A stretch of DNA of 56,034 nucleotides from a virus (Duplodnaviria; Caudoviricetes), in IMG/VR virus record IMGVR_UViG_3300033233_000048, positions 1-56,034 of that record, one strand, 5' to 3'. This document shows positions 9,497-56,034 of this stretch, in pieces. The translations under genes were made by a program, and so were the position numbers. The notes beneath the pieces are model-generated. The model was not told the DNA's origin and searched no databases. It worked only from the letters and a program-made list of their open reading frames with translations. Position 1 is the stretch's first letter; each line of letters begins with the position of its first letter.

Positions 9497-9511
9497 CACC
9501 TTAGACCCCCT

Positions 9512-13685: not shown

Positions 13686-13702
13686 GAAGGGAGAACAGCA
13701 CA

Positions 13703-20074: not shown

Positions 20075-23071
20075 GTGGTCACTAGAAAGGAACTAGGCGG
20101 TATGTCTTTCAAGATTTCCCTCGGTATGATTGTTCGTAACGAGGGTAGAACTCTCAGGCAGTGTTTAGAGTCGGTGGCTCCCTTCGTAGACGAGATCGTG
20201 ATCGGTCTAGGAGGGGAGTCCACCGATGATACTGAATCAATAGCACGAGAGTTCACAGATAAGATCATTTCCATCGAATGGAAAGATGATTTCAGTGATG
20301 CTAGAAATCAGGTTCTTGATGCAGTCACCGGTGATTATTTTTTCTGGGTTGATGGTGATGATGAGGTCATTGGGGCAGAGAATCTTAGAAAATTAACTAC
20401 TCATAATCCTAATGTAGATGGTTTCTACATGGGATATGATTATGGTAGGGATGAAGCTGGAAACTGCTCATGTTACTTAGTTCGTGAACGACTAGTCAGA
20501 CTCCATGATGAACTTCCAGATCGCGGTTGGCGTTGGATTGGGAAAGTTCATGAAGTGATGGTAGCCCGAGGTTTCAAGGAAGTCTCACTACCTGTGGATA
20601 ATGTTCTTATCAAACATCACAAACCACCGAACAAGCATGACATCAACCGGAACATTGATATCTTGTATTCTCAGCTTGAGGAACAAGAGCCGAATCCAGA
20701 CCCTAGAATTCTTGGTTATCTGTGTACTGAGAATGCAGGTCGTGGTAATTTCAAAGAAGCAATTCTTCACGGGCAACGATTCATCAAGTTGTCAGGTTGG
20801 TTAGAAGAACGATACCAAATGCAGCATCGAATTGCTGATATGTATCGAGTTACCAAACAGTTTGAAAAAGCAATAGATGCCGATATGGATGCTATTCAAA
20901 TGGTTCCAGATTGGCCTGATGCTTGGTTCGGATTAGCGGAAACATATAATGCTGTTGAGAATTACAAAGCAGTAGTTGAATACACTAAGGCGGGGGCGAT
21001 CAAATCTGCTCCAAACACGATGCTAATCATCAACCCTTTAGACTATAACTTCTTTCCTGTTCTGATTCTTGCTGGGGCATATGCTCATCTCGGTGACTTC
21101 GAGATGGCACTCGCTAATTATGAGAAAGCATACGCTATTCGTCAAGACGAAACAATTGCCTATCAGATCAATCTTCTGAAGAAGGAGATTAATCTTCAAG
21201 GTGTTACTCAAGCTTTCTTGATGCTCAGAGAACATCTCGGTCGTAATGATGAATGGCTCAAAGTTCGTAAACTATTTGATGTAGTACCTAAGCATCTTGA
21301 ACAACACCCACAGGTTCATGATGCATGGCAACGCTCAATGATACAAACTGATCATGTTCTAGATCCACAAATTATGATCGATTTCTATACTGAGAATCCC
21401 CATTGGACTCCTGTAGATGAAGAACAGATCAAAGACCCCGGGTGGTTAGTATATCCACGGATGAAATTCGCCTTAGATACAGCTCGTAAGATTCATGCAA
21501 AAACTATAGTGGATTGGGGATGTTCAGATGGATTCATCGCCCTCCCGCTTGCGAGAGAAACAAGAGCCCACGTTACCGGATTCGACCTCGACCCGCGATG
21601 TGTTGATCTGGCAACGGTACGAGCTAAGGAATGGGGAGTGGACGCTCGTTTCGAGGTCGGTAACGTGGACCAGATCGGAGGATGGGAAGGTTCAAAAGCT
21701 GACCTTGCTGTAGTTTTTGAGCTACTGGAACACGTTGTTGATCCAGCTAGAACACTTGAAGGAATTGAGAAGACAGCTAATCGAATCATTATGACAACCC
21801 CATACCTCTCATGGGAAGATGGGAATATTCCACAGTGGGATCGTGTTGAACCTAAAGGTCATCTTCGTATCTTCGATCAATATGATCTTGAGAGGATCTT
21901 AACTCCGCGTGGTCGTATTTGGAATCTATATCGAGAACCTTGGGCAAAAACTGGCTGGCTCTTCACTGAGTATATTCCCGGTGAACGTCATGATAAGAAT
22001 ATCATGATTGGAGCAATGGGTGCTCCTGAACCCTGGAACCCAAGGATCATTGATACTAGTGGACTTGGTGGTTCAGAAACAGCAGTTGTTCGATTAGCAG
22101 AAGCATTCGCACGACAAGGCCACAGGCCGGTAGTTTACTCTAATATTGATGAACCTGGTTACTATGAGGGTGCTTGTTACCGAGATGCTTCTCACTTCAG
22201 GACTGAGATAGAGTCTGATCTTTACATCGCTTGGAGAGCACCAGAACAAGCTGATTGGGAGATAAATACTAAACAGCTGGTTCTGTGGATGCATGATACT
22301 GATGCAGGGGATCGACTGACTCCAACTCGGGCGCGGAAGTTCGATTCAATAGTGATTCTGACTGAGTGGCATAAGCAGTTCATGTTAGAAAAGTATCCAT
22401 TTTTGAAACCAGATAAACTCATTGTTATTGGGAATGGGATTGATCTTTCACGGTTTGAAGGAAAAGTTAAGAGAGATCCTAAGCGAGTTATTTATTCGTC
22501 TTCACCAGACCGCGGTCTGGATATTATCCTAGAAGGAATCTGGCCGAAAGTGATAGCGGCTGTCCCTGATGCTGAATTACATGTTTACTACGGATGGAAT
22601 AACTTCGATAAGTTCGCTCCGATGTATCCACATCTTCAGGAATTCAAGAATAAAGTCCAAGGTTTATTCTTGGAATCGAAGAATGTGGTTCAACATGGAA
22701 GAGTTTCTCAGAAAGAACTGGCTGAAGCTTTTCAGAAGTCTTCAGTTTGGCTCTATCCAACTTACTTCTCTGAGACTTATTGTATTACGGCGATTGAGGC
22801 TCAACTTGGAGGGGCACTGCCAATTACTAATGAACTCGCCGGTCTAAAAGAAACAGTAGTATCTGGTGATATAATCCCTGGTGATGTAAGAAATTCAGAA
22901 GTTCAAGAACTTTACGCAAGAGCAGTGATTCAAACATTGAATACACCTCTAAAAGATCGGGGTACAATGCATAAGAGGATCTTAGAAAATGCTCCTGCGC
23001 AAAGTTGGGATTGGGTCGCCAACCTGTGGCGTCATTACTTCCTTCAGGAAGGAGAAGTAACTCGTGGCTAA
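20075..23071 (+). CDS. Multidomain GT2 + TPR + SAM methyltransferase + GT-B (GT4-like) glycosyltransferase (start may be 20102)
   Basis: GT2: ISLGMIVRNE, DDFSDARN, WVDGDD. TPR-like helices. MTase: IVDWGCSDG, GFDLD, ELLEHVVDP. GT-B: GGSET, YSSSPDRGL, ETYCITAIEA. Confidence 0.9.
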   Translation: MVTRKELGGMSFKISLGMIVRNEGRTLRQCLESVAPFVDEIVIGLGGESTDDTESIAREFTDKIISIEWKDDFSDARNQVLDAVTGDYFFWVDGDDEVIGAENLRKLTTHNPNVDGFYMGYDYGRDEAGNCSCYLVRERLVRLHDELPDRGWRWIGKVHEVMVARGFKEVSLPVDNVLIKHHKPPNKHDINRNIDILYSQLEEQEPNPDPRILGYLCTENAGRGNFKEAILHGQRFIKLSGWLEERYQMQHRIADMYRVTKQFEKAIDADMDAIQMVPDWPDAWFGLAETYNAVENYKAVVEYTKAGAIKSAPNTMLIINPLDYNFFPVLILAGAYAHLGDFEMALANYEKAYAIRQDETIAYQINLLKKEINLQGVTQAFLMLREHLGRNDEWLKVRKLFDVVPKHLEQHPQVHDAWQRSMIQTDHVLDPQIMIDFYTENPHWTPVDEEQIKDPGWLVYPRMKFALDTARKIHAKTIVDWGCSDGFIALPLARETRAHVTGFDLDPRCVDLATVRAKEWGVDARFEVGNVDQIGGWEGSKADLAVVFELLEHVVDPARTLEGIEKTANRIIMTTPYLSWEDGNIPQWDRVEPKGHLRIFDQYDLERILTPRGRIWNLYREPWAKTGWLFTEYIPGERHDKNIMIGAMGAPEPWNPRIIDTSGLGGSETAVVRLAEAFARQGHRPVVYSNIDEPGYYEGACYRDASHFRTEIESDLYIAWRAPEQADWEINTKQLVLWMHDTDAGDRLTPTRARKFDSIVILTEWHKQFMLEKYPFLKPDKLIVIGNGIDLSRFEGKVKRDPKRVIYSSSPDRGLDIILEGIWPKVIAAVPDAELHVYYGWNNFDKFAPMYPHLQEFKNKVQGLFLESKNVVQHGRVSQKELAEAFQKSSVWLYPTYFSETYCITAIEAQLGGALPITNELAGLKETVVSGDIIPGDVRNSEVQELYARAVIQTLNTPLKDRGTMHKRILENAPAQSWDWVANLWRHYFLQEGEVTRG

Positions 23072-23946: not shown

Positions 23947-24515
23947 CCGTGCGTCGCGTCCTCGCCGCACTCGTCACGGCCCTGCTCCTCGCGACTCCCG
24001 TTCTCGCAGCGCCGGCGCCGACCGGCTTGGTCCAACTATGGGACTGGTGGACGAAAGGTTACGAGTCCTCGCTGGTCATCTCGCGCACGCCGCCCCACTG
24101 CTTCGTCACCGACGACTGGAGCCTGCAACTGTGGAGCGGTACGCTCGGCCCGGGCCAGACATTCGAGGCGCGTGTCGATTTCTGCTACCGGGCCGATGTC
24201 GTGCTGCTTCGGGAGATCAGCGATAACCACGAGTCGATGATCGTCAATGCGGACGGTCGGGGCAATCTGCGGCTCGAAGTCGTGAGCGCCCTGTTCACGT
24301 CCGGCTATGAGACTGCGGAAACGACGAACAGCCGGGACTATTGGCAAGGCTGCGGCCTGTTCGAATACCGCCAGCAGGATGCCGCGGGCTGGTATGCCGG
24401 GCCGGTATTCGTCCGCCTGACGAACGTCGGGTCGCGCACGGCGCGCGACGTGTCGCTGCTCGCCGAAGTCAGTCTCGACGCTTCGGGGTTCCGCGCTCGC
24501 TGCGCGGGGAGCTGA
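23943..24515 (+). CDS. Predicted secreted protein with Sec-type signal peptide
   Basis: MTVRRVLAALVTALLLATPVLA-AP; ATGA coupling. Confidence 0.65.
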   Translation: MTVRRVLAALVTALLLATPVLAAPAPTGLVQLWDWWTKGYESSLVISRTPPHCFVTDDWSLQLWSGTLGPGQTFEARVDFCYRADVVLLREISDNHESMIVNADGRGNLRLEVVSALFTSGYETAETTNSRDYWQGCGLFEYRQQDAAGWYAGPVFVRLTNVGSRTARDVSLLAEVSLDASGFRARCAGS

Positions 24516-24520
24516 GCCAG

Positions 24521-25312
24521 ATGGCGATTGCTTTCGTCCATAACCTCGGGACCGCCCAGACCAAGGTTGGCGCGCTGACACTGGTCATCACGACTTCGGC
24601 CGCAGCCAGCGCTGGCAATACGATCATCGTTCGCGCGGTTGGAGTCGACGCGATTCCGAATGCAAGTGTTACCGATACCGCGGGCAACACCTACGTGCTC
24701 GATACCGACAACTCAGGCGCCAACCCCCGAAACGACATCTGGCGGGCCGACAACGTGGCCGCCCTCGCCAGCGGTAGCTCGATCACGGTCACATACAGCA
24801 CCACGTTCTCCGCCGCAGCCGCAGCGGCCGATGAGTTCAGCGGGGTCACGGCCACGAGCCCGAAGGATGTCAGCGGGGTCGGATCAGGCTCCTCGACCAC
24901 GCCCTCGGCGACGGCCGATCCCGTCGCGACGAACGACCTGATCTTCGGCCACGTTTCCGTCAATGGGCCGACCGGCGACACCTATACCGAGGACACCGAC
25001 AGTACCGGCGGCGATACCTGGCACACGCTCACCCGGATCGGAACGTCAGGTGCCGGGGCGACGAGCAACGTCACCAGCAATGGGGCTTACAAGATCGCCA
25101 CGGACGGCTCGGCACAGACGTATAACCCGACGCTCGGCACGTCCCGGGCTTGGCGCGATACGGTGACGAGCGAGACAGCCGCTGCCGCCGCAGACGCCCG
25201 CCCCGCCCCCATCCGTGTCGCATCGCAGGCGGTGACCCGCGCCGCTGTCTGGTGCAAGGATCATTCTGGGCTATGGGTTCCAAAGCGACGACTTTGGGTT
25301 CCTGGTGGATAA
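24521..25312 (+). CDS. Ser/Thr-rich beta-sandwich structural protein
   Basis: GGGGAG RBS; MAIAFV, ASVTDTAGNTY, EFSGV; C-terminal GLWVP..LWVP. Confidence 0.7.
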   Translation: MAIAFVHNLGTAQTKVGALTLVITTSAAASAGNTIIVRAVGVDAIPNASVTDTAGNTYVLDTDNSGANPRNDIWRADNVAALASGSSITVTYSTTFSAAAAAADEFSGVTATSPKDVSGVGSGSSTTPSATADPVATNDLIFGHVSVNGPTGDTYTEDTDSTGGDTWHTLTRIGTSGAGATSNVTSNGAYKIATDGSAQTYNPTLGTSRAWRDTVTSETAAAAADARPAPIRVASQAVTRAAVWCKDHSGLWVPKRRLWVPGG

Positions 25313-25318
25313 TAAGTA

Positions 25319-27124
25319 ATGGCTAGAATCGGGCGAAGTTTTCCACAAAGTACAAGACTGCGACTGGCGCCGAAAGATACTGGGACAACCATTGTTCCGA
25401 CTTCTATTTCATCTCAAGAAGCGATTGGAACACCAGCATTTATTCTCACCAATACTGGTATTTCACCGTCAGCTGTTGGTTCAACTGAGGCTGTTGGTTC
25501 TCATACTCTTAAAGCCACAAATGTTATTTCTCCATCTGCAATAATCTCAGGCGAAACCTTAGGAACACCTGCACTTATCCTCAGTGGAATTTCTATTCTA
25601 CCAACCGGCGTTATTTCTACAGAAGCTGTAGGAACTCCAACTCTAGTTCTCACTGGTATCAGTATTCTACCAACTGAGATTGTAACAGACGAAGCAGTTG
25701 GTGCTCATACTCTTAAAGCCACAGCTACTATCTCTCCTTCGTCTATTAGTTCTGCAGAAGCGGCTGGTTCATCGACTCTTATCGCAGTTGCTTTTATTAT
25801 TCCAACTGCCATCTCAAGCGATGAAGCAGTTGGTTCACCCACTCTTGCAATCCCTATTCAAACTATTCAACCAACGGCGATTGCTTCAGCGGAAGTAATA
25901 GGTACTCCTTCTCTCATCCTTGCTAATATTAACATTCTACCATCGTCAATTGTTTCAGCCGAAGCGGTTGGAACATCCTCTCTTATTCTAACCAACATCA
26001 ATATTCTACCAACTTCTATTATTTCAAGTGAAGCGGTTGGTTCTCATTTACTTAAAGCTACTAATTCAATCCTACCATCAGCTATCAATTCAGCTGAAGC
26101 CACTGGAACGCCCTCATTAGTTCTCAGTGGTATCAATATTCTACCAACTGGGGTATCAACTGCGGAAGTAGTAGGTACTCCTAATCTTCTGGCAATCAAC
26201 ACAATTTTGCCAGTTGCTATAGCAAGTAATGAGGCATTAAGCGCCCCATCTCTAATTCTTGCTAACATCAATATTCTACCCACAGCAGTCTCATCTGCTG
26301 AGGCAATAGGCGCTCACGTTCTCAAGGCTACAGCAGTCATCTTACCAACTGCTATCAATTCAGCAGAGGTTTTTGGTTCTCTCAGATTCGACCCCCTGTG
26401 GCCTACTCCTATCTCATCAGATGAGCAGTTAGGAACTCCAACTTTAGTTGCTGGACAGCCTGGCGCTGTAAACATTCTACCAACGTCAGTTTTATCTGAA
26501 GAGGGAACTGGAACACCTTCCTTATTAGCTGGTGGAGTTAGTGTTCAAATATCAGCTATAGGATCAGCCGAAGCAGTTAGCACTCCGAGCTTAATTGCTA
26601 CAGCTAAGATTCTTCCAGTAGTTATCAATACTGAAGAATCTGTTTCCCAACCGGTTCTCTACAGTTCAGCGACTATTAGTCCCGCCTCTATTAATCCACA
26701 AGAGGTACTGGGTACTCCGTCTATCATCGTCGGGGCATCTATAATTCAACCAAGTGGAGTTAATAGCGCTGAAATTAGTGGCAATCCAATACTTGTACCA
26801 GGACAAGTTTCTGTTCTTCCAAATAGTATTACTGCAAGTGAACTATTTGGATTACCAATTCTTATCCCTACTAACACAATCATTGTAGAATCTGCTGCTT
26901 CAGCAGAAGCATTTGGTTTCCCGGTTCTATCACTCGGTGTTACTCGAATCATCGTGAACGGAATTCCATCAGATGAATCCTTCGGTACTCCGACACTTCC
27001 AGTTCTTATTGCAGGTTGGCGGTGGATAAATCGCAGTCCTGCCTGGAGAACTACTAAATCTAGAGGATGGAGTGAAGCGCAAGATTCTCTTGTCAAGACT
27101 CGAAGAAATGAAGGCGATAGCTAA
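25319..27124 (+). CDS. Ser/Thr-rich tandem-repeat fibre-like virion protein
   Basis: About 24 copies of a 22-23 aa repeat, I.P..I.S.E.(V/F)G.P.L. Confidence 0.85.
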   Translation: MARIGRSFPQSTRLRLAPKDTGTTIVPTSISSQEAIGTPAFILTNTGISPSAVGSTEAVGSHTLKATNVISPSAIISGETLGTPALILSGISILPTGVISTEAVGTPTLVLTGISILPTEIVTDEAVGAHTLKATATISPSSISSAEAAGSSTLIAVAFIIPTAISSDEAVGSPTLAIPIQTIQPTAIASAEVIGTPSLILANINILPSSIVSAEAVGTSSLILTNINILPTSIISSEAVGSHLLKATNSILPSAINSAEATGTPSLVLSGINILPTGVSTAEVVGTPNLLAINTILPVAIASNEALSAPSLILANINILPTAVSSAEAIGAHVLKATAVILPTAINSAEVFGSLRFDPLWPTPISSDEQLGTPTLVAGQPGAVNILPTSVLSEEGTGTPSLLAGGVSVQISAIGSAEAVSTPSLIATAKILPVVINTEESVSQPVLYSSATISPASINPQEVLGTPSIIVGASIIQPSGVNSAEISGNPILVPGQVSVLPNSITASELFGLPILIPTNTIIVESAASAEAFGFPVLSLGVTRIIVNGIPSDESFGTPTLPVLIAGWRWINRSPAWRTTKSRGWSEAQDSLVKTRRNEGDS

Positions 27125-40817: not shown

Positions 40818-40942
40818 GGTTCATACTTCCTGCATCCACAAACAGAACACCCAGTCTTCGTCGGTACTCCTATCTGCTTTCTCTCTGTATGCAAGTTCTT
40901 AGGATGACCGCACCACAGACAGTGGCCTCTGCCATGACTCAT
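40814..40942 (-). CDS. Small Cys/His-rich protein (42 aa, not in ORF track)
   Basis: MSHGRGHCLWCGHPKNLH...CSVCGC; ATGA overlap with the polA stop. Confidence 0.55.
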   Translation of the reverse strand: MSHGRGHCLWCGHPKNLHTERKQIGVPTKTGCSVCGCRKYEP

Positions 40943-43350
40943 TTCTCACCCCAATGTTGAGATATAACTACTTCTGCTTCGATCGGAATTGTCGGTGAGA
41001 ATCCGAACAATCGCTTCAATGGCAGATTCTCCATCACCTGTTTAACTAACGTAGCTACTTCTTCTACAACATCTTCACGGGCTTCGAGTAGGACGGAGTC
41101 GTGTACATTCCCGATAATCCTGGCGGATCTTCGATCAGTAAGACGACTCGAGAGGATGACCATTGAGAGGATGGTGAGATCTGATGCGAAACCTTGAACA
41201 GGAGCATTGATAGCTTCTCTCTCAGCTTCCCCCTGAACCCCCTCATCTGTGGATAAAATGGTAGGAAGATGACGAATCCGTCCAATGGGACTTTGAACGA
41301 ATTGAAGGTTTCGAACGAGGCGCCGTTGACGATCATGCCAGGCCGGTAATCCTCGATATTGGTCAAAGAATGCTTGACGATAGGCTTTTGCTTCATCATC
41401 ACTTACCTTAATCTGGAATTTCTCATCGGCATAAGTTCTGAATTTTTTCCAGCCCATCCCATAAAGGAAGCCGAAGTTAACAGCCTTCGCCATCTTCCTT
41501 TCTTCCTTGGTGACTTCTGCCGGAGGCTTGTTCAGGACTTTAACTGCTGTTTCAAGGTGTGGATCACCGCCTGTAGTGAATGCATGCGTGAGTGCTGAGT
41601 CCCTGGAAAACATAGCAGCAATGCGGAGTTCGACTTGAGAAAAGTCAGCCTCAATGAATTTCCATCCTGGTCGACTCCCGATGATACTTCGAATGTATAT
41701 ATCCCTGGGCACCTGTTGCATATCTGATGATAAACGCCCGGTGACAGTTCCGGAGAGATTATAAGAGGTGTAAAGTCGTGGCTTGCGAGCAACTCCAATT
41801 CGAGCAAGCCAGTTTCGAGTATAGGTTGATTCATACTTCTGCCATTTTCTTAACTCCATTAATAGATCAACTGCTTCGTGTTTCTTTCGAAGCTGGAGGA
41901 GTACTGACTCCGCTGTGGAAGGTCTTCCAGATTTTGGTGATACAACGATAACTGGTAGTTTCAGATATTCAAAGAAAAACCAACCGAGGAAAACAACTGA
42001 ACGTAAGTTAGCGATTCCCTTCTTCTCTTCTGGTACAAATGAAAGAATCTTATCTTCAGTCTCTGCAATTATCTGTTTAATCTCAGTATGACGTTGACGA
42101 AGTCGTTCCATGTCCACAGGAAAACCGTTAGTTTCTAGATCAATGAACGCTCGACACGCCGGCATCATTAGTTTCGTGAAAAGACGGTGAAGTCTTGGTT
42201 GTTTCTTTAACTCTTCTCTGAACAGATGGTATAAACGGAGAGTGTAATCGGCATCTTTTCCATTGTAGATAGCGAGCCGAGTAAGTCCCGTAACAGAATT
42301 AAAACTGACCCCAGTTTCGTAATCATCAGCGCCAAGATAAGTTCTGGCAAGAGGTTTAAGTCCTCCAGGTCGATTTTCATCGAGGAGATGTGCGGCAAGT
42401 TTCGTGTCAAAGTGAGCATAGAGTTCTACTCCTTTAGCTGCCATCCATTGACAATCAAACTTGATGTTATGTCCAACCATTCGTTTCCCAGCCAGAGCCA
42501 CACTGAGTGCTTCGTAAACCCGATCAATGGGGATATCCCATTCAATTTCTGGGTGTTCAAGACCCACAACGTAAGATTTACCTGGTTCCCAGGAGAAGGC
42601 AGCGGTATGAATAACTCCGTCTGGTGCCCAAGGTTCAAGCCCTCCTCGGTCACGAGTCATCTCCTTTGTTCCAGTCTCAACATCGAATGAAATTGGTGTT
42701 TCCACAGAGGCTAATATTTGGCAGAACTTAGCTAGTCCCTTCGATGATCGGATAAGTGCAGTTTGAGTTTCCGGGCGCCGATCTTGTCCATTGACAAGGC
42801 GGACAAAGGACAGCAAGTCGGCCTTGAAGATGCCCTCATGCGCCGGATTTCTTAGGACGGCCGCTGGATGTATAGTAGCAAAGACTGTTCGCCCATTAAT
42901 CTGCTTAGCGATCCCTCGTTTAGACATAATTCCTGTGGAACCGGTTATCGCTTGGAGAGCGGCATTTCCCAGAAGAAGGATATATTGAGGATTAACAATA
43001 TCAAGTTCACGTTGCATGAAAGTTGCGCAAGTCTTGATCTCGGTCCTTGTCGGTGTCCGATTATCTGGCGGGCGACAGCGAACCGCATTGGTGATATAGA
43101 CAGAGGCTCTAGATAATCCGACTTCCGATAAAATCCTATCCAAATACTGGCCAGCGACCCCTGAAAATGGGCGTTCAATATCATCTTCCCGTGCACCTGG
43201 AGCCTCTCCAATCAACATGATCTTGTTTGGAACTGGGCCGTCACCTAGAAGACAGACAGTTCTTGCTTCTTTATGAAGTGAACAGAGAGTACAATTCTGA
43301 TCTCTGACTGGAAGCCAGACTAGTTCTCTTGCTTGTGGATTAAGTGTCAT
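40939..43350 (-). CDS. polA: Family A DNA polymerase with N-terminal family-4 uracil-DNA glycosylase domain and 3-5 exonuclease
   Basis: UDG: CTLC, IGEAPG, PFSG.AG, TNAVRCRPP.NRTP, HPAA. Exo: FDVET, HNIKFD. Pol: TGRLSS, ADFSQVELR, RKMAKAVNFGFLYG, VHDS. Confidence 0.95.
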   Translation of the reverse strand: MTLNPQARELVWLPVRDQNCTLCSLHKEARTVCLLGDGPVPNKIMLIGEAPGAREDDIERPFSGVAGQYLDRILSEVGLSRASVYITNAVRCRPPDNRTPTRTEIKTCATFMQRELDIVNPQYILLLGNAALQAITGSTGIMSKRGIAKQINGRTVFATIHPAAVLRNPAHEGIFKADLLSFVRLVNGQDRRPETQTALIRSSKGLAKFCQILASVETPISFDVETGTKEMTRDRGGLEPWAPDGVIHTAAFSWEPGKSYVVGLEHPEIEWDIPIDRVYEALSVALAGKRMVGHNIKFDCQWMAAKGVELYAHFDTKLAAHLLDENRPGGLKPLARTYLGADDYETGVSFNSVTGLTRLAIYNGKDADYTLRLYHLFREELKKQPRLHRLFTKLMMPACRAFIDLETNGFPVDMERLRQRHTEIKQIIAETEDKILSFVPEEKKGIANLRSVVFLGWFFFEYLKLPVIVVSPKSGRPSTAESVLLQLRKKHEAVDLLMELRKWQKYESTYTRNWLARIGVARKPRLYTSYNLSGTVTGRLSSDMQQVPRDIYIRSIIGSRPGWKFIEADFSQVELRIAAMFSRDSALTHAFTTGGDPHLETAVKVLNKPPAEVTKEERKMAKAVNFGFLYGMGWKKFRTYADEKFQIKVSDDEAKAYRQAFFDQYRGLPAWHDRQRRLVRNLQFVQSPIGRIRHLPTILSTDEGVQGEAEREAINAPVQGFASDLTILSMVILSSRLTDRRSARIIGNVHDSVLLEAREDVVEEVATLVKQVMENLPLKRLFGFSPTIPIEAEVVISQHWGEK

Positions 43351-43841
43351 ATTACTCTCACTTGTTCAGCTCCATCAGGAACAGGAATTTGCCAGATACC
43401 AATCCCGGCAGTGACGAGGAGTGCAAGTCCACTAGTATCTCTATATGGAGTTTCGAAATAAACTGCGATAATACCAGCATTAATAATGAGTTTAGCGCAT
43501 TCGAGACATGGTGAATGAGTACAGTAGAGTTTAGATCCATCAGTACTCGTTCCAGCCCTAGCAGCAAAAGAAATTGCATTCGCTTCGGCATGAACTGTTC
43601 TGGTGCATCCCCCATGATTACCAACTTCACATCCAACAGTTGTGCAATGAGGAAGTCCAGAAGGTGCTCCAACATATCCTGTTGAGATGATTCTTCCTTC
43701 TCTTGCAATTACAGCCCCTACTGAAGCCCGTTCACAGGTACCTCTGAGAGAGATGACTGTGGCAGTTCTCATTAACATTTCTTCTCTACTGATCCTAGAA
43801 GACATCAACCACATCTTTCTTATAAACGTGAAGAGAACCAA
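43347..43841 (-). CDS. dCMP deaminase (ComEB-like); start probably near 43806
   Basis: VGAVI, TGYVG.P, HAEANAI, SPCLECAK. Confidence 0.92.
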   Translation of the reverse strand: MVLFTFIRKMWLMSSRISREEMLMRTATVISLRGTCERASVGAVIAREGRIISTGYVGAPSGLPHCTTVGCEVGNHGGCTRTVHAEANAISFAARAGTSTDGSKLYCTHSPCLECAKLIINAGIIAVYFETPYRDTSGLALLVTAGIGIWQIPVPDGAEQVRVI

Positions 43842-44493
43842 TCCAATGCGTGAAAAATCCAGGTTGTATTTCTATAAGTTCTGCAATATATCGCTGCAGT
43901 TTGTGGGTAAGATACATATCATTCGCTAAGTGTGTGAAGTAATCTCCTGACCGCTGTAGATACGTGATATGGAGTTTTCTATTTCGCAAAGCGAACCAGT
44001 ACCCCAATGAACAAGGGACACGTCGTTGCCCGAGTTGTTCATTGTCCAACTCCCTCCACACTGGCATGAAAAGCTGGCGGGAATCTGGATGCTTCCGTAA
44101 TTCATCAACGATGGAAATGAGAGTTCCTTTCGAAGAATTCTGAAACTTTCGATATCTTTCTCCGTAAGTGTAACCGAAACCACGGTCTGCAAATTCCTGC
44201 CAGATTTCTGGCCTGAGACGCCAAGCGGATAGTGACTCATCATCCGGCCCCAATCCCTGTAATCTTTCTTCAAATTCAGCTTCGCACCAATCTACATTAG
44301 CAACGTTATACAGGTCAGTTAGATCTGGTTTGGTCACAGTATAGATCATATTCAGATATTCTTGGGTTTGATATTCTGGATCGTCCGCGATCTGTTTATC
44401 TTGCATCGTTTGTGGATGAACTTTCATACCGAGTTCAGCGATATCCCGTTTCAATTCATCAAGAGCCTCTGGGAAATTCCTATAGATTCTCAA
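43795..44493 (-). CDS. Thymidylate-synthase-fold enzyme with a dCMP-type specificity residue
   Basis: YTYGER, PDSRQ, RVPC, YLQRSGDYFTHLAND, HWIGSLHVY. Confidence 0.85.
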   Translation of the reverse strand: MRIYRNFPEALDELKRDIAELGMKVHPQTMQDKQIADDPEYQTQEYLNMIYTVTKPDLTDLYNVANVDWCEAEFEERLQGLGPDDESLSAWRLRPEIWQEFADRGFGYTYGERYRKFQNSSKGTLISIVDELRKHPDSRQLFMPVWRELDNEQLGQRRVPCSLGYWFALRNRKLHITYLQRSGDYFTHLANDMYLTHKLQRYIAELIEIQPGFFTHWIGSLHVYKKDVVDVF

Positions 44494-45371
44494 ATCGTCG
44501 CCTCCCCGATGTCAAGAATTCCAGACCCACGTTTACCTTCACCTGTTAAAACAAGAGTAGAAGCTTGTTGCGAAGTAAGTTTGCGATTAACTCTCCTATG
44601 TGTCGCCCACCCTTTTAGAACTAGATTCGCCACAGGGAAAGAACGGTACTCTCCAGCTTGTGCGTTCTCAAATTTCGTCTTCCATCTACGGGCAGCTCTC
44701 CATTTAATCTCTTCTTCTGGTCTATTCATATATTCATGATAGTATCTGACTGAATCACCGATTCTACCATCATGCTTCATAAATTCTTCGAGGCGTCCGA
44801 AGGTGTAGAGGGTAGCAACTGTTTCAACGGTTTTGATGATGAAGTTTGGGCAGTAGATCCGAAGCCTGATATCTTCCTGATCAATGCCCATACGTTCAGC
44901 AAGTTTGCGAGCGACGAAATCAGAAAGCGCGTAATCGGCGACTCCTGAGAAACCGAGTGACTGGGCTCGTGTATAGAGAGTGAGAGTTGCAGGTTTAGGC
45001 TGCCGTCTGAAGCTGAAGCCGAGTAGACAGTTACCCCATTGGTGGACCGCCTTCTGACCCCCGAAATTTGGCGGAACGATTCTGAATGTCCAGAGGGCAT
45101 CATAGGTTCTCACATTCATGGCATTGTTCACCCAGGCGTGTAGAGTTTCTGGGTCAACATATTGCCCGGTAAACTTCGTCCATTTCGTCGGCGTCAAACC
45201 AATCTTACCAAGATCAAAGTCGAAAACAGCTGACTTGGCTTCCATCTGATTACCGAAAGAGTGAATAATGTTACGTTGATAATAGTCAATGTAACCTGGT
45301 TTATCTTCGAGCATACCAAAGTATGCCCCTTCCCACATAGCTTTGATATCAGGAAATTCTTCGATAATCAT
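44490..45371 (-). CDS. Divergent second thymidylate-synthase-fold protein
   Basis: GNCLLGFSF and LYTRAQSLGFSGVADY align with the TS catalytic Cys and the RSxD...(N/D) segment; ATGA-coupled to the first TS. Confidence 0.6.
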   Translation of the reverse strand: MIIEEFPDIKAMWEGAYFGMLEDKPGYIDYYQRNIIHSFGNQMEAKSAVFDFDLGKIGLTPTKWTKFTGQYVDPETLHAWVNNAMNVRTYDALWTFRIVPPNFGGQKAVHQWGNCLLGFSFRRQPKPATLTLYTRAQSLGFSGVADYALSDFVARKLAERMGIDQEDIRLRIYCPNFIIKTVETVATLYTFGRLEEFMKHDGRIGDSVRYYHEYMNRPEEEIKWRAARRWKTKFENAQAGEYRSFPVANLVLKGWATHRRVNRKLTSQQASTLVLTGEGKRGSGILDIGEATI

Positions 45372-45625
45372 CCGCGATCAGAGTCTAAATTAGCTTCACG
45401 ACGACGCTCATCTTCAATTCTATTACACTGCATCACCATCGAGTCAATGAATTCATTTGGTCTGATTACACCTGTCAGATAAAGTAAGTTGAGGATTACC
45501 GAAATCTCAGCTCGAAGTACAGTTGCTTCTCCATATTTTCCAACTAATTCATCTCGATTGACAGACTTCCGATACATCTCGCTCTGTGGCATTGGAACCC
45601 AAATCTTGCGTTTATCAATACTCAT
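45368..45625 (-). CDS. Hypothetical protein in the nucleotide-metabolism operon
   Basis: Coupled to both neighbours. Confidence 0.65.
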   Translation of the reverse strand: MSIDKRKIWVPMPQSEMYRKSVNRDELVGKYGEATVLRAEISVILNLLYLTGVIRPNEFIDSMVMQCNRIEDERRREANLDSDRG

Positions 45626-46069
45626 CTAGTAGTTACTCTCCTGTCGGAACTTATTGACTTCGGACTTCTTGAAGTAGAGTTTGTAAACCATCTCAGCGTC
45701 TAGTCCGACGATCAGGCAGAGTCTAACGAAAAAGTGGAGTGCATCCATCAACTCTTCGTAGAAGTGGGCTTGATCTGTCAAGACATGAGTTGTCTTCCAT
45801 GGCTTATTCTTCAAGCAGTTAGTTGCTTCGCTGATCTCTTCAATCATACGATAAGCGGCATCTTTGATATACCACTGAGAGACTGGATCATCCAGATCTA
45901 CATCAAGTCCCCTGTGGAGAGTATATCCATTAGCGATTTCAATTTCATCATACTTCCCCTCAAGTTCCTTCTGACGCTCAAAGATAGCTTCAAACATATC
46001 TCTAATACGGACAGGACCTGACCAAGTCTCAGGAGCTTCAGTTTTGATATCGTTAATGTTCACTGACAA
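45626..46069 (-). CDS. Dimeric all-alpha dUTPase/dCTPase
   Basis: EEISE, KPWK, EELMDALHF, KKSEVNKFRQESNY. Confidence 0.85.
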   Translation of the reverse strand: MSVNINDIKTEAPETWSGPVRIRDMFEAIFERQKELEGKYDEIEIANGYTLHRGLDVDLDDPVSQWYIKDAAYRMIEEISEATNCLKNKPWKTTHVLTDQAHFYEELMDALHFFVRLCLIVGLDAEMVYKLYFKKSEVNKFRQESNY

Positions 46070-46266
46070 TTCCGACAGAGGTAATAATTGGATACTGTTT
46101 CTTGGAACTCAAGCGGATTATGAGATTTAACCGGTTCCATTCGACGACCACATTTAGTGATGGCTGCATCTTCAATGAATGATTCTACTAGATGCCAAAA
46201 AGTAATTTGGCGTCTCTTACTTCCATAAGCAGTAATCCGACAAACCCATTGTCCGATGTTTGGCAT
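46060..46266 (-). CDS. Small Zn-binding protein
   Basis: WH...TKCG...CRNC; GGAGG RBS. Confidence 0.6.
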   Translation of the reverse strand: MPNIGQWVCRITAYGSKRRQITFWHLVESFIEDAAITKCGRRMEPVKSHNPLEFQETVSNYYLCRNCQ

Positions 46267-46631
46267 TATCTTCCTAACCTCCAGTAGATCGGCCCGGTAA
46301 AACAATGTTGGAGATATATGCAGAGGCCGCCCGACAGATCCCAAATCCGGCCTTCAACGTAGGGACCTCGATCGATAACAGGAACCGTTTTCTGTTCTCC
46401 TTTCCATCTGAAAGTAACGAGAGTTCCACACGGTAGCGTCCGATGCGCGACTCCGAAGATCCTTTTGGTATAGGCTTGTCCACAAGCGGTGTGATTTCCG
46501 TAGAATCCAGGACCATACCACGAGATTTCTTTATCGTAGTTCCATCCTTTCTCAACTGAATGCTGGCTGAAGATTGTTGTGATAATAAGTAAGAGATATG
46601 TTATCCATTTAGAGATTTCATCTAATATCAC
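46266..46631 (-). CDS. RlpA-like double-psi beta-barrel protein with N-terminal membrane anchor
   Basis: SWYGPGFYGNHTACG, VAHRTLPCGT, VIDRGPY..GRIWDLS. Confidence 0.85.
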   Translation of the reverse strand: MILDEISKWITYLLLIITTIFSQHSVEKGWNYDKEISWYGPGFYGNHTACGQAYTKRIFGVAHRTLPCGTLVTFRWKGEQKTVPVIDRGPYVEGRIWDLSGGLCIYLQHCFTGPIYWRLGR

Positions 46632-47157
46632 CCTTCAAGTATCCTCGTACGATTTCAAATAGTTCTAGTATGTTTGAGTTCCATTTATAGTGAATGAACC
46701 TCTTCCCATACCAATTCATTTCTGAAGACATCACTTCATCGTAAAGTTCCACGAGTTGAATGAATCGATCTTCAACTCCTTCCATCTGATCTTTAGTTTT
46801 GATACCAAGGCGTAATTCATCAGTCGTCGGACGAACATAGATCAATAAGGCGGAGGTTCTAAGAAACCACAGGATATTGTTGATGAGTGGTGGTTCAGCA
46901 GTAATACGGCCCCTAAGTACTGGCCCATAAACGAGTTCTGAATAAAAGAATCTGTCATGGATAGGAATTATATCCGATTCTTCTCGATCCATTTGTTGGG
47001 GCCACCATACACTGAAATCCTGTTCTGGACCAAGTTCATTACGAATCAGCTCTAATTGTGGAAATCCTCTCATCAACTTATGAACAAGAGTAGTTTTTCC
47101 GCTACCATCCACTCCTTCAACAATGATTCTTTTCTCTTGTCTAAGTGGGCTGATCAA
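46618..47157 (-). CDS. dNMP (thymidylate-like) kinase
   Basis: IIVEGVDGSGKTT, HDRFFYSELVYG.VLRG. Confidence 0.85.
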   Translation of the reverse strand: MISPLRQEKRIIVEGVDGSGKTTLVHKLMRGFPQLELIRNELGPEQDFSVWWPQQMDREESDIIPIHDRFFYSELVYGPVLRGRITAEPPLINNILWFLRTSALLIYVRPTTDELRLGIKTKDQMEGVEDRFIQLVELYDEVMSSEMNWYGKRFIHYKWNSNILELFEIVRGYLKGDIR

Positions 47158-47181: not shown

Positions 47182-47210
47182 ATTATAAGGCATCTTGGTA
47201 TCCCTGTAAA
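47182..47210 (-). promoter_or_regulatory. Sigma70-type promoter for the nucleotide-metabolism/pol operon
   Basis: TTTACA-17 bp-TATAAT, then a GGGAGG RBS. Confidence 0.75.
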
Positions 47211-47213: not shown

Positions 47214-48692
47214 TCAGTTTTCAAGAAGAATATGGGGATTATGAAGTACAGCTTCTGCGATACTTCCCTTCTCTTTTAGTACTTTCAACACTACAGAATC
47301 TATAGTTCGTGGAGCCACGAGATGATAGTATGTAACTTTCCTAGTTTGACCGATACGATGAAGTCTGTCTTGCGCTTGCCAATAGTTTCCTGCATTATAG
47401 TCAAGACTGTAAAAGATACACACATCCGCCGGTGTAAGATCAATACCAAGGCTTCCCGCTTGAATTTGGCTAATGAATACTTTAAGACTACTATCTTCAT
47501 GGAATCTCTCTACTAAACTGTCTCTGTCCCGGGAGGGGACACTTCCAGACAGTATTGCATAGTCGATTTTACGCTCACCAAGTTTCTGTGCAATTCGATC
47601 AATATCCAATCTGAATCGAACAAAGATGACAACTTTGTGATCTTCTTCCAATAGATCGTCAACCAGATCCATGCAAGTATTAAGCTTAGAACTATCCAAG
47701 ATTCGAATTTGTCCTTCCACATCTTTAATGAACCCAGATGTAATCTGGGAAAGTCGAAGAAGTTTGACCAGAACGATTGCTGCGGTGGCATGAGTATCTT
47801 CAATCTCTACAATCATCTCTTCAGCCATCTTCTTATAGATTCCCTGTATTCTGTCTGGAAGTGTGATAGGGACAGTTTCAAACAGTTTAGGTGGGAGATC
47901 TAGACACTGTTCCTTCTTGATTCTGTATGAGTTTTCTCTGACTTTAGTGACAAGTTGTTTAAGATTACGGTAACCACGAAGTTGATATCTACCGAACCCA
48001 CCCCAGATCCCATAAGTGAATTTGAAATGGAACCAATTAGTTCCAAAAATTTCAGGCTTCATCGCACGGAACTGACCAAAGATATCTAGTGGTGATTTAG
48101 TGATCGCAGTTCCAGTCAGGAGCATCCGCATTCTTGCAGCTTGTCCAATACGAAATGCTGAACGACTCTGTTTAGAACTCGGACTCTTTAACCTGTGGGA
48201 CTCATCGAAAACAACAATATCTGGTTTCCAACGAATTAAGAGTTCTTCGATTGAAGGACCTCTAACAGGCGAGCGCCAGGTCCCTTCATAGTTGATAATA
48301 AGATAAGTGACATACTCATTGCTATGAGGATCTCGTTGGATTCTCCTGATGGCGGTAGCTCTACTCGAAGTAGAACCTTCGAGTCGGAAAATCCGAGTGG
48401 GCGCACCTGAATGTTGACGAATCTGTCTGGGCCACACTCCAAGAACAGAGAGTGGGGCAATAATGAGAACTCGTCTAACGTTATCATTGTAGAATCCGAT
48501 TCCTGCCCAATCAATTACAACTTTCGTCTTTCCTGTTCCCATCTCCATCAGGAGCCCACCACTCCCGTTCAAATCAAAAAGTTTCCGCAGGGCTTTCTTT
48601 TGATGGGAGAAAGGTTCAGTCTTATATGTATATTTAAGCTTATTCGGCCGCTCGAGGATCACGGTCCCCTTCTGTGTATGTTTGATTCTCAT
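47214..48692 (-). CDS. SNF2-family helicase
   Basis: MEMGTGKT, FDESH, LLTGT, GIDLT, QAQDRLHRIGQ; start at 48692 inferred. Confidence 0.9.
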   Translation of the reverse strand: MRIKHTQKGTVILERPNKLKYTYKTEPFSHQKKALRKLFDLNGSGGLLMEMGTGKTKVVIDWAGIGFYNDNVRRVLIIAPLSVLGVWPRQIRQHSGAPTRIFRLEGSTSSRATAIRRIQRDPHSNEYVTYLIINYEGTWRSPVRGPSIEELLIRWKPDIVVFDESHRLKSPSSKQSRSAFRIGQAARMRMLLTGTAITKSPLDIFGQFRAMKPEIFGTNWFHFKFTYGIWGGFGRYQLRGYRNLKQLVTKVRENSYRIKKEQCLDLPPKLFETVPITLPDRIQGIYKKMAEEMIVEIEDTHATAAIVLVKLLRLSQITSGFIKDVEGQIRILDSSKLNTCMDLVDDLLEEDHKVVIFVRFRLDIDRIAQKLGERKIDYAILSGSVPSRDRDSLVERFHEDSSLKVFISQIQAGSLGIDLTPADVCIFYSLDYNAGNYWQAQDRLHRIGQTRKVTYYHLVAPRTIDSVVLKVLKEKGSIAEAVLHNPHILLEN

Positions 48693-48849
48693 TAAGGAAC
48701 TGTCGGCCACAGTATGGGATACCACCACTGGAAGATTTGTTGTGAATGAAACCCTGTTTAGTTTCTCCCTTTCCCCAAACCTTTTCTGGATCAGGGGGTT
48801 CTTTAACTTCTTGATCGCAATACAAACACCGTCGAATCTCATTTGCCAC
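48640..48849 (-). CDS. Small CxxC protein
   Basis: GGAG RBS; GTG start; CLYC..YC. Confidence 0.5.
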   Translation of the reverse strand: MANEIRRCLYCDQEVKEPPDPEKVWGKGETKQGFIHNKSSSGGIPYCGRQFLNENQTYTEGDRDPRAAE

Positions 48850-53834: not shown

Positions 53835-54055
53835 TGGATACTAGAACTGGTGAGATTCGTCAACTCAAGAATGGTGAAGAACCAAAGGAAGATGAAGTCG
53901 AACTCACTAATGAACAACTAGAAGAAAGCATCAATCTAAGTCCACAGGAGAGAGTAGCCTGGTGGGCTGGAAGAGTACGGGGTAAGGATCGAAAAGCCGC
54001 TCATCGTGGTCAACATGCGAAAGCAAAGATGAAGAGACGAGCTAAGAAGAGATGA
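53834..54055 (+). CDS. Hypothetical protein with basic C-terminus
   Basis: MDTRTGEI; TAATG coupling. Confidence 0.65.
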   Translation: MDTRTGEIRQLKNGEEPKEDEVELTNEQLEESINLSPQERVAWWAGRVRGKDRKAAHRGQHAKAKMKRRAKKR

Positions 54056-54263
54056 ACAGACAGCTATTATCTCCGAAAGAATTAGCCGTTCTCGCCGCTT
54101 TTATGGGCGTCTGAGTGATCAAAGTGAAGTAGCCCATTCTCTCCATATGTCTCTACATACTGTGAAAAATCATCTATCTACTATCTATGCTAAACTGGGT
54201 GTTTATAAGAATATTGATGCTTTTCGAGTTGTTGGTTGGCTTAAAATCCCAGAAGAATTATAA
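54052..54263 (+). pseudogene. LuxR-type HTH gene interrupted by a frameshift at a T4 run
   Basis: Frame 0 reads MNRQLLSPKELAVLAAFMGV* (TGA 54112). The -1 frame continues YGRLSDQSEVAHSLHMSLHTVKNHLSTIYAKLGV to TAA 54263. Confidence 0.75.
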
Positions 54264-54436
54264 TGGCTGACTTCTGTATCTGTGATGCACAACTACAACC
54301 ACATGATCGTATGCCGTGGGTTTGTCCCCTTCCTGAAGACTTTTCATGGATCACTGCCAGCCGTGAACTCAGGCATGAAGCAGCTGAACGAATTCTGTTG
54401 AACGAACCAGAAGAGATGGAGAGAATTGATGGCTAG
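54263..54436 (+). CDS. Small hypothetical protein (57 aa, not in ORF track)
   Basis: TAATG coupling; MADFCICDAQ. Confidence 0.5.
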   Translation: MADFCICDAQLQPHDRMPWVCPLPEDFSWITASRELRHEAAERILLNEPEEMERIDG

Positions 54437-54446
54437 AGCAGTATGA

Positions 54447-54833
54447 ATGAGTATTATGATGGCTATTATCATAGTTGATGAAAAATTACGTCAGCTCACA
54501 TTTCGTATCAATTCTGATGGACGAACTGTTAGATCTCAGGATTTGATCATTGATCGAGCTGATATAGAACGTGAAGCTATCGAGCGCCGAAATGCTGAAG
54601 CCGATGCGATCCTCGACCAGCCAGATGTTCAAGCAGCGATGAAAGCATTCATTGCCAAGAAGGAAGCGAAGTTAGTGGCTGAGGCTGTTGTTCGCGTCCT
54701 TCGCGAGCTGGCCGACGAGGTGGCGGGGCTTCATGATGATTACAACAAGACGGGCGAGTCCGGTTGGATTGGGCGTTCTGACGTGATTGGCCTCATCGCC
54801 GCGAAGGCCGAAGTCGAAGGAATGACGTTGTGA
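54447..54833 (+). CDS. Hypothetical mosaic protein
   Basis: Carries a 34-aa module also present in the next gene; GC content shifts within the gene. Confidence 0.65.
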   Translation: MSIMMAIIIVDEKLRQLTFRINSDGRTVRSQDLIIDRADIEREAIERRNAEADAILDQPDVQAAMKAFIAKKEAKLVAEAVVRVLRELADEVAGLHDDYNKTGESGWIGRSDVIGLIAAKAEVEGMTL

Positions 54834-55312
54834 CCGAAGCCGGGAAGCTGCTGATAGTTGGTGCCGGTCATGGCTCGCACCGACCGGGTTACACCTGCCT
54901 GGAGTGTGAGCGCCAAAAGGAGAGACTGATGACTGATCCCATCGACCTGCTCGACGAAGCCTCGTGGCTCGACGGCGATGCTCCCACCGCCGTCGAAGAG
55001 GACCGGCCCGTGGCGCTTGCTGTTGACTTCAGCCGCACCGTGGGTGACCTTCGCCACCTCATCGCCCTGGCCCAAGACGCGGAGCAGCTGCGGGCGGCCG
55101 TCACTGCCATCGAGGCCGAGGCCGTCGCCAACCGAGACGCCGAGGCGGACGCCATCCTCGACCAGCCCGACATACAGGCGGCGATGAAGGCGTATTTCGC
55201 CAAGAAGGACGCAAAGCTTGTAGCCGAGGCCGTTGCCGCCGAGCGCGCCCGCATCGTGGGCGACCTTCGCCGCCTCCTCGCCCTGCGTATCATCAAAGGA
55301 GAGACACCATGA
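54830..55312 (+). CDS. Hypothetical mosaic protein (alternative start 54929)
   Basis: GC-rich; duplicated module and internal VGDLR.L.AL repeat. Confidence 0.65.
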   Translation: MTEAGKLLIVGAGHGSHRPGYTCLECERQKERLMTDPIDLLDEASWLDGDAPTAVEEDRPVALAVDFSRTVGDLRHLIALAQDAEQLRAAVTAIEAEAVANRDAEADAILDQPDIQAAMKAYFAKKDAKLVAEAVAAERARIVGDLRRLLALRIIKGETP

Positions 55313-55662
55313 CCGATGACCGAGGCGCGGCGGCGCTAGTCAGGCTAATCCACAGGTTCTGGGATGACCTACCCAAAATCCAAGCCGACTACGAGGGCTG
55401 GCCTGCTGCCTTCGATAGCGCGCTCGCCGCTGCCATCCTTGGCGAGCACGGCGTGTTCCTGCCGGATGGCGCCGCGACGCGAGCCTTCACGACATGGTTG
55501 GAGTCCGATGAGCCGAGCGCGCAGGCCGAAGTCGAGCGGCTACGCGCAGCGCTGGAATACATCCGAGATGAGCTCGGTGTACCAGGCCCGGGCTATCCGA
55601 TGCCGATTGCGAACGCTGCAAACCGGGCTCGCGCCGCCCTCGCCCCGGAGCCGAAGCCATGA
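55309..55662 (+). CDS. Hypothetical protein (GC-rich)
   Basis: AAGGAG RBS; ATGA coupling; EVERLRAALE. Confidence 0.7.
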   Translation: MTDDRGAAALVRLIHRFWDDLPKIQADYEGWPAAFDSALAAAILGEHGVFLPDGAATRAFTTWLESDEPSAQAEVERLRAALEYIRDELGVPGPGYPMPIANAANRARAALAPEPKP

Positions 55663-55931
55663 GCGACGCCGAGCTGGAGGCCATTCGGACACGGCTCGCC
55701 AAGCACGATGATTGTTGGGTTTCTGCCGACGACATCCGTGATTGCCTGGGTGAGGCGCAACACGACCGCCGCATCCTCCTCGCCCGCCTCGATGCCACCG
55801 AGGTCCGCGAGCGGGCGCTGCGGGATTTCCTGTGGCGAGTATGGACGAGATGGCCGGTTGATGCATTGCCCGAGAAAATGCTGGTCGAGGCCGAAGCCCT
55901 CCTCGCCGAGCCGACCGGGGGACCACAATGA
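55659..55931 (+). CDS. Hypothetical protein (GC-rich)
   Basis: GGAG RBS; ATGA coupling; ELEAIR.RL..DRRILLARL. Confidence 0.7.
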   Translation: MSDAELEAIRTRLAKHDDCWVSADDIRDCLGEAQHDRRILLARLDATEVRERALRDFLWRVWTRWPVDALPEKMLVEAEALLAEPTGGPQ

Positions 55932-56034
55932 AAGTCATTGTTTGTGGGGATCGAAACTGGATTAATCGAGACTTCATTTATTCCACTTTAGATAAGTATC
56001 CAATCACCGAGCTCATCGAAGGTGGAGCCAATGG
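55908..56034. repeat. Terminal direct repeat, copy 2
   Basis: Identical to 1-127. Confidence 0.95.

Follow-up and report, generated by a model that had tools for sequence, protein, structure and literature searches.

A candidate cytosine-modifying gene cassette with two thymidylate-synthase-fold proteins in a 56-kb virus genome

The complete virus record IMGVR_UViG_3300033233_000048 (56,034 bp; hereafter the window, meaning the whole stretch of DNA analysed) carries a tightly packed row of nucleotide-metabolism genes on its minus strand, at 47157-40939, downstream of a promoter-like site. Two products of this row, termed here TS-A and TS-B, are related to thymidylate synthase: TS-A is a short member of the enzyme family that resembles homologues acting on deoxycytidine monophosphate (dCMP), and TS-B is a very divergent protein whose predicted structure has the same fold. 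With moderate confidence, we interpret the operon as serving to remodel the nucleotide pool, with a C5-substituted cytosine taking the place of cytosine in phage DNA, an interpretation based on the observed gene content, fold, residue conservation and co-occurrence. The cassette type is already known from T4, from XP12/PaMx74 and from the MetaGPA work. The TS-B family appears undescribed, and no description of a TS-B/TS-A pair was found in the literature searched, a scope that left most subscription journals and supplements outside. Because catalytic-type residues are kept in TS-B in widely divergent phages of Actinobacteria and Firmicutes and in metaviromic phages, this protein is a concrete candidate for new nucleotide chemistry.

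TS-A and TS-B

TS-A (43795..44493, minus strand; 232 amino acids (aa)) is the single PF00303 match in the whole genome (69.9 bits against a curated cut-off of 24.3, E 2.6e-19), and it matches many thymidylate synthases in the Protein Data Bank (PDB), with E-values down to 5e-13. A whole-genome search found neither ThyX nor dihydrofolate reductase (DHFR), and no second thymidylate synthase; the Pfam matches thereby bear out an earlier sequence-only reading of this DNA, according to which the genome holds no other ThyA or ThyX. When TS-A was aligned with E. coli ThyA, T4 gp42, PaMx74 gp52, Mayweather gp53 and Clo-PEP-1 gp1, its C161 fell on E. coli C146, R181 and S182 on R166 and S167, and D184 on D169, with R158 at the position of E. 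coli L143 (T4 D145). D192 aligned with E. coli N177 and T4 gp42 D179, as had been proposed from the motif string QRSGDYFTHLAND, which is present in the translation. These six residues (R158, C161, R181, S182, D184 and D192) are all invariant in 71 of 71 distinct relatives, which were drawn from the 80 IMG/VR loci that have a TS-A relative, some of them on incomplete contigs. With Asp at the N177 position throughout, the earlier identification of TS-A as a dCMP-type thymidylate-synthase homologue was upheld.

The protein ends 10 residues past H222, the equivalent of H207, much like T4 gp42, whose end lies at roughly this point, and therefore lacks the last ~50 residues of ThyA, namely the C-terminal segment after the H207/Y209 strand that closes over the folate in that enzyme. 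Since the relatives span 220-244 aa, this shortness is a trait of the family. TS-A accordingly departs from canonical ThyA at two points, with Asp instead of Asn at 177 and with the C-terminal segment missing. Its AlphaFold2 (AF2) model has a mean predicted local distance difference test score (pLDDT) of 91.3, and the best Foldseek match of this model is MilA (E 3.2e-16, query TM-score (TMq) 0.80, 21% identity), with AfhB and ordinary thymidylate synthases close behind.

Three positions are described as diagnostic in two published studies: N177D switches thymidylate synthase to dCMP (PMC8670742, PMC13326640), hydroxymethyl products are associated with acidic side chains at L143 (PMC13326640), and D169N is the mark of flavin-dependent 5-hydroxy-dCMP synthases (PMC13326640). 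TS-A carries the Asp of N177D, keeps Asp at the D169 position and has at the L143 position an invariant Arg that none of the published rules covers; it represents a new subfamily.

TS-B (44490..45371, minus strand; 293 aa) returned no match in Pfam, NCBIfam or PDB sequences, phmmer included. Its PHROG, phrog_13667 (E 2.3e-24), is without function, and all of its database relatives are unnamed or labelled 'hypothetical'. A search of 1.84 billion representatives returned 150 relatives at E <= 0.001. A Pfam run on all 88 members of the TS-B alignment gave no PF00303 match, and a search of PDB sequences with the family profile found nothing (best E 2.7). The alignment itself is strongly constrained: Y71, G113, C115 and R135 are invariant across its 88 sequences, D146 nearly so, and for the 61 distinct relatives taken from the loci the counts are 60 with C115, 60 with R135, 61 with D146 and 59 with Y71. 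The sequence-only reading, which quoted the motif string TRAQSLGFSGVAD (present in the translation), had credited TS-B with a Cys and the Asp and otherwise called it very degenerate. Both residues are indeed kept, but simple degeneracy does not describe the protein, since Cys, Arg and Asp hardly vary within its family.

Comparison of the TS-B and TS-A family profiles (hhalign E 1.3e-4, probability 54%, 123 columns) placed TS-B C115 on TS-A C161, R135 on R181 and D146 on D192, and the spacings of these residues, 20 from Cys to Arg and 11 from Arg to Asp, are identical in E. coli ThyA, TS-A and TS-B. The two proteins had been described as paralogues, a term that holds only at the level of profile and fold, since pairwise BLAST of TS-A against TS-B finds nothing. 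The AF2 model of TS-B (pLDDT 91.4, predicted TM-score (pTM) 0.87) has thymidylate-synthase-fold enzymes throughout its top Foldseek matches in the PDB. VIA-align superposed it on 9iqu (AfhB, the dCMP hydroxylase of phage HY126) with Z 15.3 and a root-mean-square deviation of 3.5 A over 184 residues, followed by 9iqc (Z 15.0), MilA (Z 14.5) and thymidylate synthases (Z ~11), with 396 chains at Z >= 8; these alignments cover residues 1-192 of TS-B and, in some rows, extend up to about residue 259. The thymidylate-synthase fold that the earlier reading attributed to TS-B was recovered in the model by both programs, and on the strength of this model TS-B is a remote member of the thymidylate-synthase superfamily.

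At the D169-equivalent position, the 61 distinct TS-B relatives have Glu (41), Tyr (9), Ser (6), Gly (2), Val (2) or Arg (1), the copy in the window having Ser138; as these six residues sum to all 61, no relative has Asn there. Because the residues for nucleophilic attack (Cys), phosphate binding (Arg) and cytosine reading (Asp) are kept, TS-B is probably an active enzyme on a cytosine nucleotide and not a dead subunit, and the constraint on these residues is as expected of an enzyme, not of a decayed paralogue.

One match of the TS-B model stands apart from the solved structures. The BFVD entry A0A8S5MQL3 (408 aa, Myoviridae sp.; Foldseek E 1.2e-4) is named with a CMP/dCMP-type deaminase domain, so that a thymidylate-synthase-like fold and a deaminase may be naturally fused in it.

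Spread and arrangement of the cassette

Co-occurrence of TS-A, TS-B and the deaminase, which the sequence-only reading had named as a way to check the association, was scored across the 80 loci: a clear TS-B is present in 65 and the deaminase in 42, alongside a nucleoside triphosphate pyrophosphatase (NTP-PPase) in 72, the kinase in 70 and a family A DNA polymerase (PolA) in 52. The 15 loci without a clear TS-B comprise three without upstream DNA, five with a weakly matching open reading frame (ORF) in the slot (loci L014, L030-L032 and L065; profile E-values of 1.7e-5 to 0.03, hhalign probability 3-27%) and seven with none. In 64 of the 65 loci TS-A has TS-B upstream of it on the same strand, and in one the order is reversed; the two genes overlap or lie <=10 nt apart in 35, are separated by 11-300 nt in 19 and by >300 nt in 10. 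In searches for loci from the TS-B side, a TS-B sub-alignment returned 14 loci, all on contigs already reached via TS-A, and single distant TS-B proteins returned 0 and 2.

Among isolates, tblastn placed TS-B in 85 phage records, all of them actinobacteriophages. The order of the cassette is kept in Gordonia phage Mayweather, mycobacteriophage Muddy and Clostridium perfringens phage Clo-PEP-1, in whose records TS-B is a 'hypothetical protein'. Muddy gp47 (4743-5636 of locus L086) belongs to the TS-B family with E 1.9e-82 against the family hidden Markov model (hmm), and Muddy gp45 (6409-6951 of the same locus), also annotated 'hypothetical', is a dCMP-family deaminase (PF00383, E 2.5e-18). Clo-PEP-1 gp2 was recognised as TS-B by hhalign (97.9%, E 4.6e-13). 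PaMx74, searched with the family hmm, has no TS-B.

Proposed pathway and competing explanations

Three further enzymes complete the cassette upstream of polymerization. The kinase (46618..47157, minus strand; 179 aa) is a thymidylate-kinase-like (Tmk-like) P-loop nucleoside-monophosphate kinase, matching phrog_761 thymidylate kinase with E 1.2e-17 and Pfam Thymidylate_kin with E 1.7e-4, the latter over its N-terminal part only and below the cut-off. It gave no match to PF21448, though T4 gp1 itself scores 3e-107, and no BLAST alignment to gp1. The NTP-PPase (45626..46069, minus strand; 147 aa) is an all-alpha member of the family of dimeric dUTPases and the T4 gp56 dCTPase (PF08761 E 1.9e-9; phrog_12184 E 5.8e-33); T4 gp56 itself matches PF08761, and BLAST aligns the two at 37% identity over 49 aa (E 8e-9). 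A parallel with the T4 enzyme set, drawn earlier from the gene row, consequently stands for the NTP-PPase but not for the kinase, which is no homologue of gp1. The third enzyme is a dCMP/dCTP-type zinc deaminase (43347..43841, minus strand; PF00383 E 1.3e-21, phrog_174 E 3.7e-48), 164 aa long from the first TTG, although its true start may lie further in.

From this gene set we infer the substrates and products of the cassette and, with them, a modified virion DNA. In the pathway that we favour, the NTP-PPase would convert dCTP, and also dUTP, to the monophosphate; TS-A would pass a one-carbon unit from methylene-tetrahydrofolate to C5 of dCMP; the Tmk-like kinase would phosphorylate the modified product; and the phage PolA would put the modified nucleotide into DNA. 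TS-B would probably carry out a second or alternative C5 step on a cytosine nucleotide; it might add a further catalytic step, yield a different product or act as a partner subunit. A pre-replicative pathway of this kind, depleting dCTP and modifying C5, is indicated because the NTP-PPase belongs to the gp56 family and because of a neighbourhood link in metaviromes: in PMC8670742 and bioRxiv 10.1101/2024.12.05.627091, thymidylate synthases with Asp at position 177 (D177) and PRA-PH-type NTP-PPase, dCMP deaminase, PolA and exonuclease are linked to, or enriched in, modified-cytosine contigs. The deaminase, which about half of the loci lack, is assigned to a side branch, where it would optionally supply dUMP for the host thymidylate synthase, or thymine-type triphosphates from modified dCTP as in that preprint. 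As to the group added by TS-A, we tentatively favour hydroxymethyl and regard methyl, the less favoured product, as rather unlikely; the truncation of TS-A and the lack of DHFR make hydroxymethyl somewhat likelier.

A further-reaching version, unlikely in our judgement, has TS-B as a new catalytic branch of the superfamily that performs a second C5 reaction on the cytosine nucleotide, for example by capturing an exocyclic-methylene intermediate derived from the TS-A product with a nucleophile besides water or hydride. If so, siphoviruses with a TS-B/TS-A pair, including Muddy and the Gordonia and C. perfringens phages, would hold an undescribed cytosine modification built wholly at the nucleotide level.

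Several points weigh against the cassette reading. No nucleoside analysis or report of DNA modification on any carrier of the cassette, Muddy included, was found in the literature searched. Arg158, which all 71 relatives share at the L143 position, fits neither the methyl nor the hydroxymethyl rule in PMC13326640, and in bioRxiv 10.1101/2024.12.05.627091, 5 of 7 deaminase-linked D177 enzymes tested made 5-methyl-dCMP, not 5-hydroxymethyl-dCMP. The kinase is thymidylate-kinase-like, not gp1-like, and the labels given to the set in public records (thymidylate kinase, dUTPase, thymidylate synthase) spell out a plain dTMP route too. Finally, TS-B of the window differs from the family consensus at Ser138, where most relatives have Glu, and at K63, I172 and K180, and judging by these substitutions this copy could be less active.

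The finding on the seven tested enzymes favours an alternative like that of XP12 and PaMx74, which we rate as unlikely: TS-A alone or with TS-B would make 5-methyl-dCMP, 5-methylcytosine (5mC) would replace cytosine, and the deaminase would turn part of the 5-methyl-dCTP or 5-methyl-dCMP into dTTP or dTMP, with no need for a dUMP-dependent thymidylate synthase. The genomic neighbourhood reported in the preprint (thymidylate synthase, PRA-PH, PolA and exonuclease) is the same as in this operon; there, 104 of 149 deaminase genes on modified-cytosine contigs lie <=3 kb from a thymidylate synthase gene, and the deaminase mSCD-B5 converts 5-methyl-dCTP to dTTP (bioRxiv 10.1101/2024.12.05.627091). 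A thymidylate-kinase-like kinase and a genome without another ThyA or ThyX would also suit such a scheme. The PaMx74 enzyme, however, retains the ~50 C-terminal residues that TS-A lacks, PaMx74 encodes DHFR, which this genome does not, and the scheme leaves TS-B unexplained because PaMx74 has none. The sequence-only reading had likewise offered dTMP synthesis by deamination of methylated cytosine nucleotides; the preprint provides a precedent, but on the triphosphate, and since the deaminase occurs in only 42 of the 80 loci, deamination is not the core of the pathway.

Still more doubtful is the obligate TS-A:TS-B heterodimer proposed in the sequence-only reading; in such a pair TS-B, itself non-catalytic or supplying half a site, would complete or regulate the truncated TS-A. 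Thymidylate synthases function only as dimers, with Arg126' and Arg127' of one subunit entering the active site of the other, and of these two positions TS-A keeps only the first (R139, followed by Q140). The two genes overlap by 4 nt in the window and lie <=10 nt apart in 35 of the 65 loci with both, TS-B accompanies only TS-A enzymes of the short, RVPC-type subfamily and is absent alongside the full-length PaMx74 enzyme, and some TS-B alignments extend into the C-terminal part of L. casei thymidylate synthase, the part missing in TS-A. Against this, the idea draws on adjacency; 10 of the 65 pairs lie >300 nt apart and one is in reversed order, and 7 of the 80 TS-A loci have no recognisable TS-B. 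No TS-B-TS-A fusion appeared among the 150 representative matches, nor in a search for longer proteins, the latter being weak evidence. The near-invariant Cys, Arg and Asp of TS-B, a catalytic-type set, argue for catalysis of its own. Prediction of a TS-A and TS-B complex scored 0.00 in both runs, which were made without controls and speak neither for nor against binding. Obligate heterodimerization is unsupported.

Ordinary thymidylate supply (dUTPase to dUMP, thymidylate synthase to dTMP, thymidylate kinase to dTDP, with unmodified DNA and TS-B as an unrelated accessory) would accord with the annotations of Muddy, Mayweather and Clo-PEP-1 as thymidylate kinase, dUTPase and thymidylate synthase, with the Tmk-like kinase, with an intact-looking uracil-DNA glycosylase (UDG) domain on PolA that fits a uracil-excluding phage, and with the lack of reports of modified DNA from carriers in the literature searched, but it is very improbable given Asp at the N177 position in 71 of 71 TS-A and 61 of 61 TS-B relatives, a substitution that makes a dCMP enzyme (PMC8670742), together with the missing ThyA C-terminal segment and the lack of DHFR.

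Modified cytosines, the outcome of the cassette that we favour, shield phage DNA against restriction enzymes and further defences that target DNA, and also provide enzymes for epigenome sequencing. If therapy phages such as Muddy carry modified cytosine, this would bear on their host range, on their resistance to defences and on the behaviour of their DNA in sequencing and engineering.

Genome setting and comparison with known systems

The record has direct terminal repeats and a CheckV completeness of 100%, and occurs in two sediment metagenome runs as assembled contigs, with no RNA run listed. The genes named in the sequence-only reading all lie on the minus strand where it had placed them, as confirmed by ORFs and by Pfam and PHROG matches, and its gene list for the row is right except that it overlooked a gene for an RlpA/DPBB-like protein (46266..46631, minus strand; 121 aa; PF03330 DPBB_1 E 1.3e-11; TIGR00413 rlpA E 5.7e-14, below the cut-off). 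This gene, of lytic-transglycosylase type, sits between those of the kinase and the NTP-PPase; only 1 of the 80 related loci has one, and its product is probably not part of the pathway. Between NTP-PPase and TS-B lies an 85-aa orphan, p85 (45368..45625, minus strand), with no match in Pfam, PHROG or NCBIfam, present in only the 4 closest of the 80 loci. Stop and start codons overlap by 4 nt at the p85/TS-B, TS-B/TS-A and deaminase/PolA junctions.

Upstream of the row, a sigma-70-like promoter match (47182..47210, minus strand; TTTACA-17-TATAAT, 11 of 12 consensus positions) falls within the 56 nt that separate the SNF2 helicase and kinase genes. The promoter named there earlier therefore exists as a consensus match and as nothing beyond that, because a scan of the region returned 17 sites where shuffled sequences led us to expect 15.4. 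The SNF2-family helicase gene directly upstream (47214..48842, minus strand; PF00176 E 4.4e-20, PF00271 E 1.6e-18) occupies, by synteny, the place of the helicase gene in Muddy and Mayweather.

The row ends in a single 803-aa protein (40939..43350, minus strand) that combines a family-4 UDG (PF03167 E 3e-31), a 3'-5' exonuclease (PF01612 E 5.8e-14) and a family A DNA polymerase (PF00476 E 7.1e-83), whose closest relatives among isolates are in Streptomyces, Mycobacterium (Muddy, FF47) and Gordonia phages, at 35-41% identity. The N-terminal, family-4-like UDG domain spans residues 36-171, and the motifs GEAPG and HPA, which we take to be UDG motifs, are visible in the translation. Carried on the polymerase, this domain suggests, from sequence, an active exclusion of uracil during replication.

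Elsewhere in the genome, two genes downstream of the major capsid gene, a 998-aa multidomain protein is encoded (20075-23071, plus strand) that has GT2 glycosyltransferase, SAM methyltransferase and GT4/GT1 glycosyltransferase domains as well as TPR repeats and that could add sugars to virion proteins or to DNA. It was considered as a DNA-glycosylating partner of the cassette and left out, as only 2 of 5 related complete cassette genomes have it and it is thus not linked to the cassette. Genes for a YAcAr/SLOG-family protein (21-368, plus strand; PF10686 E 1.4e-15) and a RuvB-like AAA+ ATPase (4765-5763, plus strand; PF05496 E 5.2e-43) are located near the left genome end. Four 2-kb blocks (8001-10000, 12001-14000, 24001-26000 and 54001-56000) have a G+C content of 0.54-0.58 against a background of 0.41-0.49, which suggests a mosaic origin of parts of the genome.

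Among known systems, T4 shares several elements with the cassette. TS-A and gp42 have in common the thymidylate-synthase fold, the catalytic Cys, the Arg-Ser-x-Asp motif, the Asn-to-Asp change at N177 and a short C-terminus; the NTP-PPase aligns with gp56 and is in the same Pfam family; and the dCMP-type deaminase parallels cd. The two differ at the L143 position, which is acidic in T4-type hydroxymethylases (PMC13326640) and Arg in TS-A, in the kinase, Tmk-like here instead of gp1, and in TS-B, which has no counterpart in T4. The arrangement differs as well: genes 56, 42 and 1 lie tens of kb apart in the T4 record, whereas here the cassette forms one operon joined to a PolA replication module.

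XP12 and PaMx74 resemble the cassette in gene neighbourhood, with a D177 thymidylate-synthase homologue adjoining an NTP-PPase and a dCMP-family deaminase, and metaviromic contigs of this kind also have PolA and exonuclease. PaMx74 is said to replace cytosine with 5mC in bioRxiv 10.1101/2024.12.05.627091. Its gp52, unlike TS-A, is a full-length enzyme of 298 aa whose alignment with E. coli ThyA runs to the end of the latter; it has Asn at L143 and comes with a DHFR gene nearby; against the TS-A family hmm it reaches only 1.7e-16, where true pairs give 1e-34 or better.

The flavin-dependent 5-hydroxy-dCMP synthases, listed in PMC13326640 as RB69 gp48, DLP3 gp80 and HY126 AfhB (PDB 9iqu, 9iqc), come nearest to the TS-B model of all solved structures and also rank high among the matches of TS-A. 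They too are short, thymidylate-synthase-fold dCMP enzymes with Asp at N177. The D169N that marks them is absent here, where TS-A has Asp184 (71 of 71) and TS-B Ser138, and their sequence identity to TS-B is only 8-9%. MilA, the mildiomycin CMP hydroxymethylase (PDB 5jnh, 5b6d), likewise has the thymidylate-synthase fold and is specific for a cytosine nucleotide, but it is a 318-aa bacterial enzyme of secondary metabolism with a ribonucleotide substrate, and Asp occupies its N177 position as well as its L143 position (PMC13326640), the latter being Arg in TS-A.

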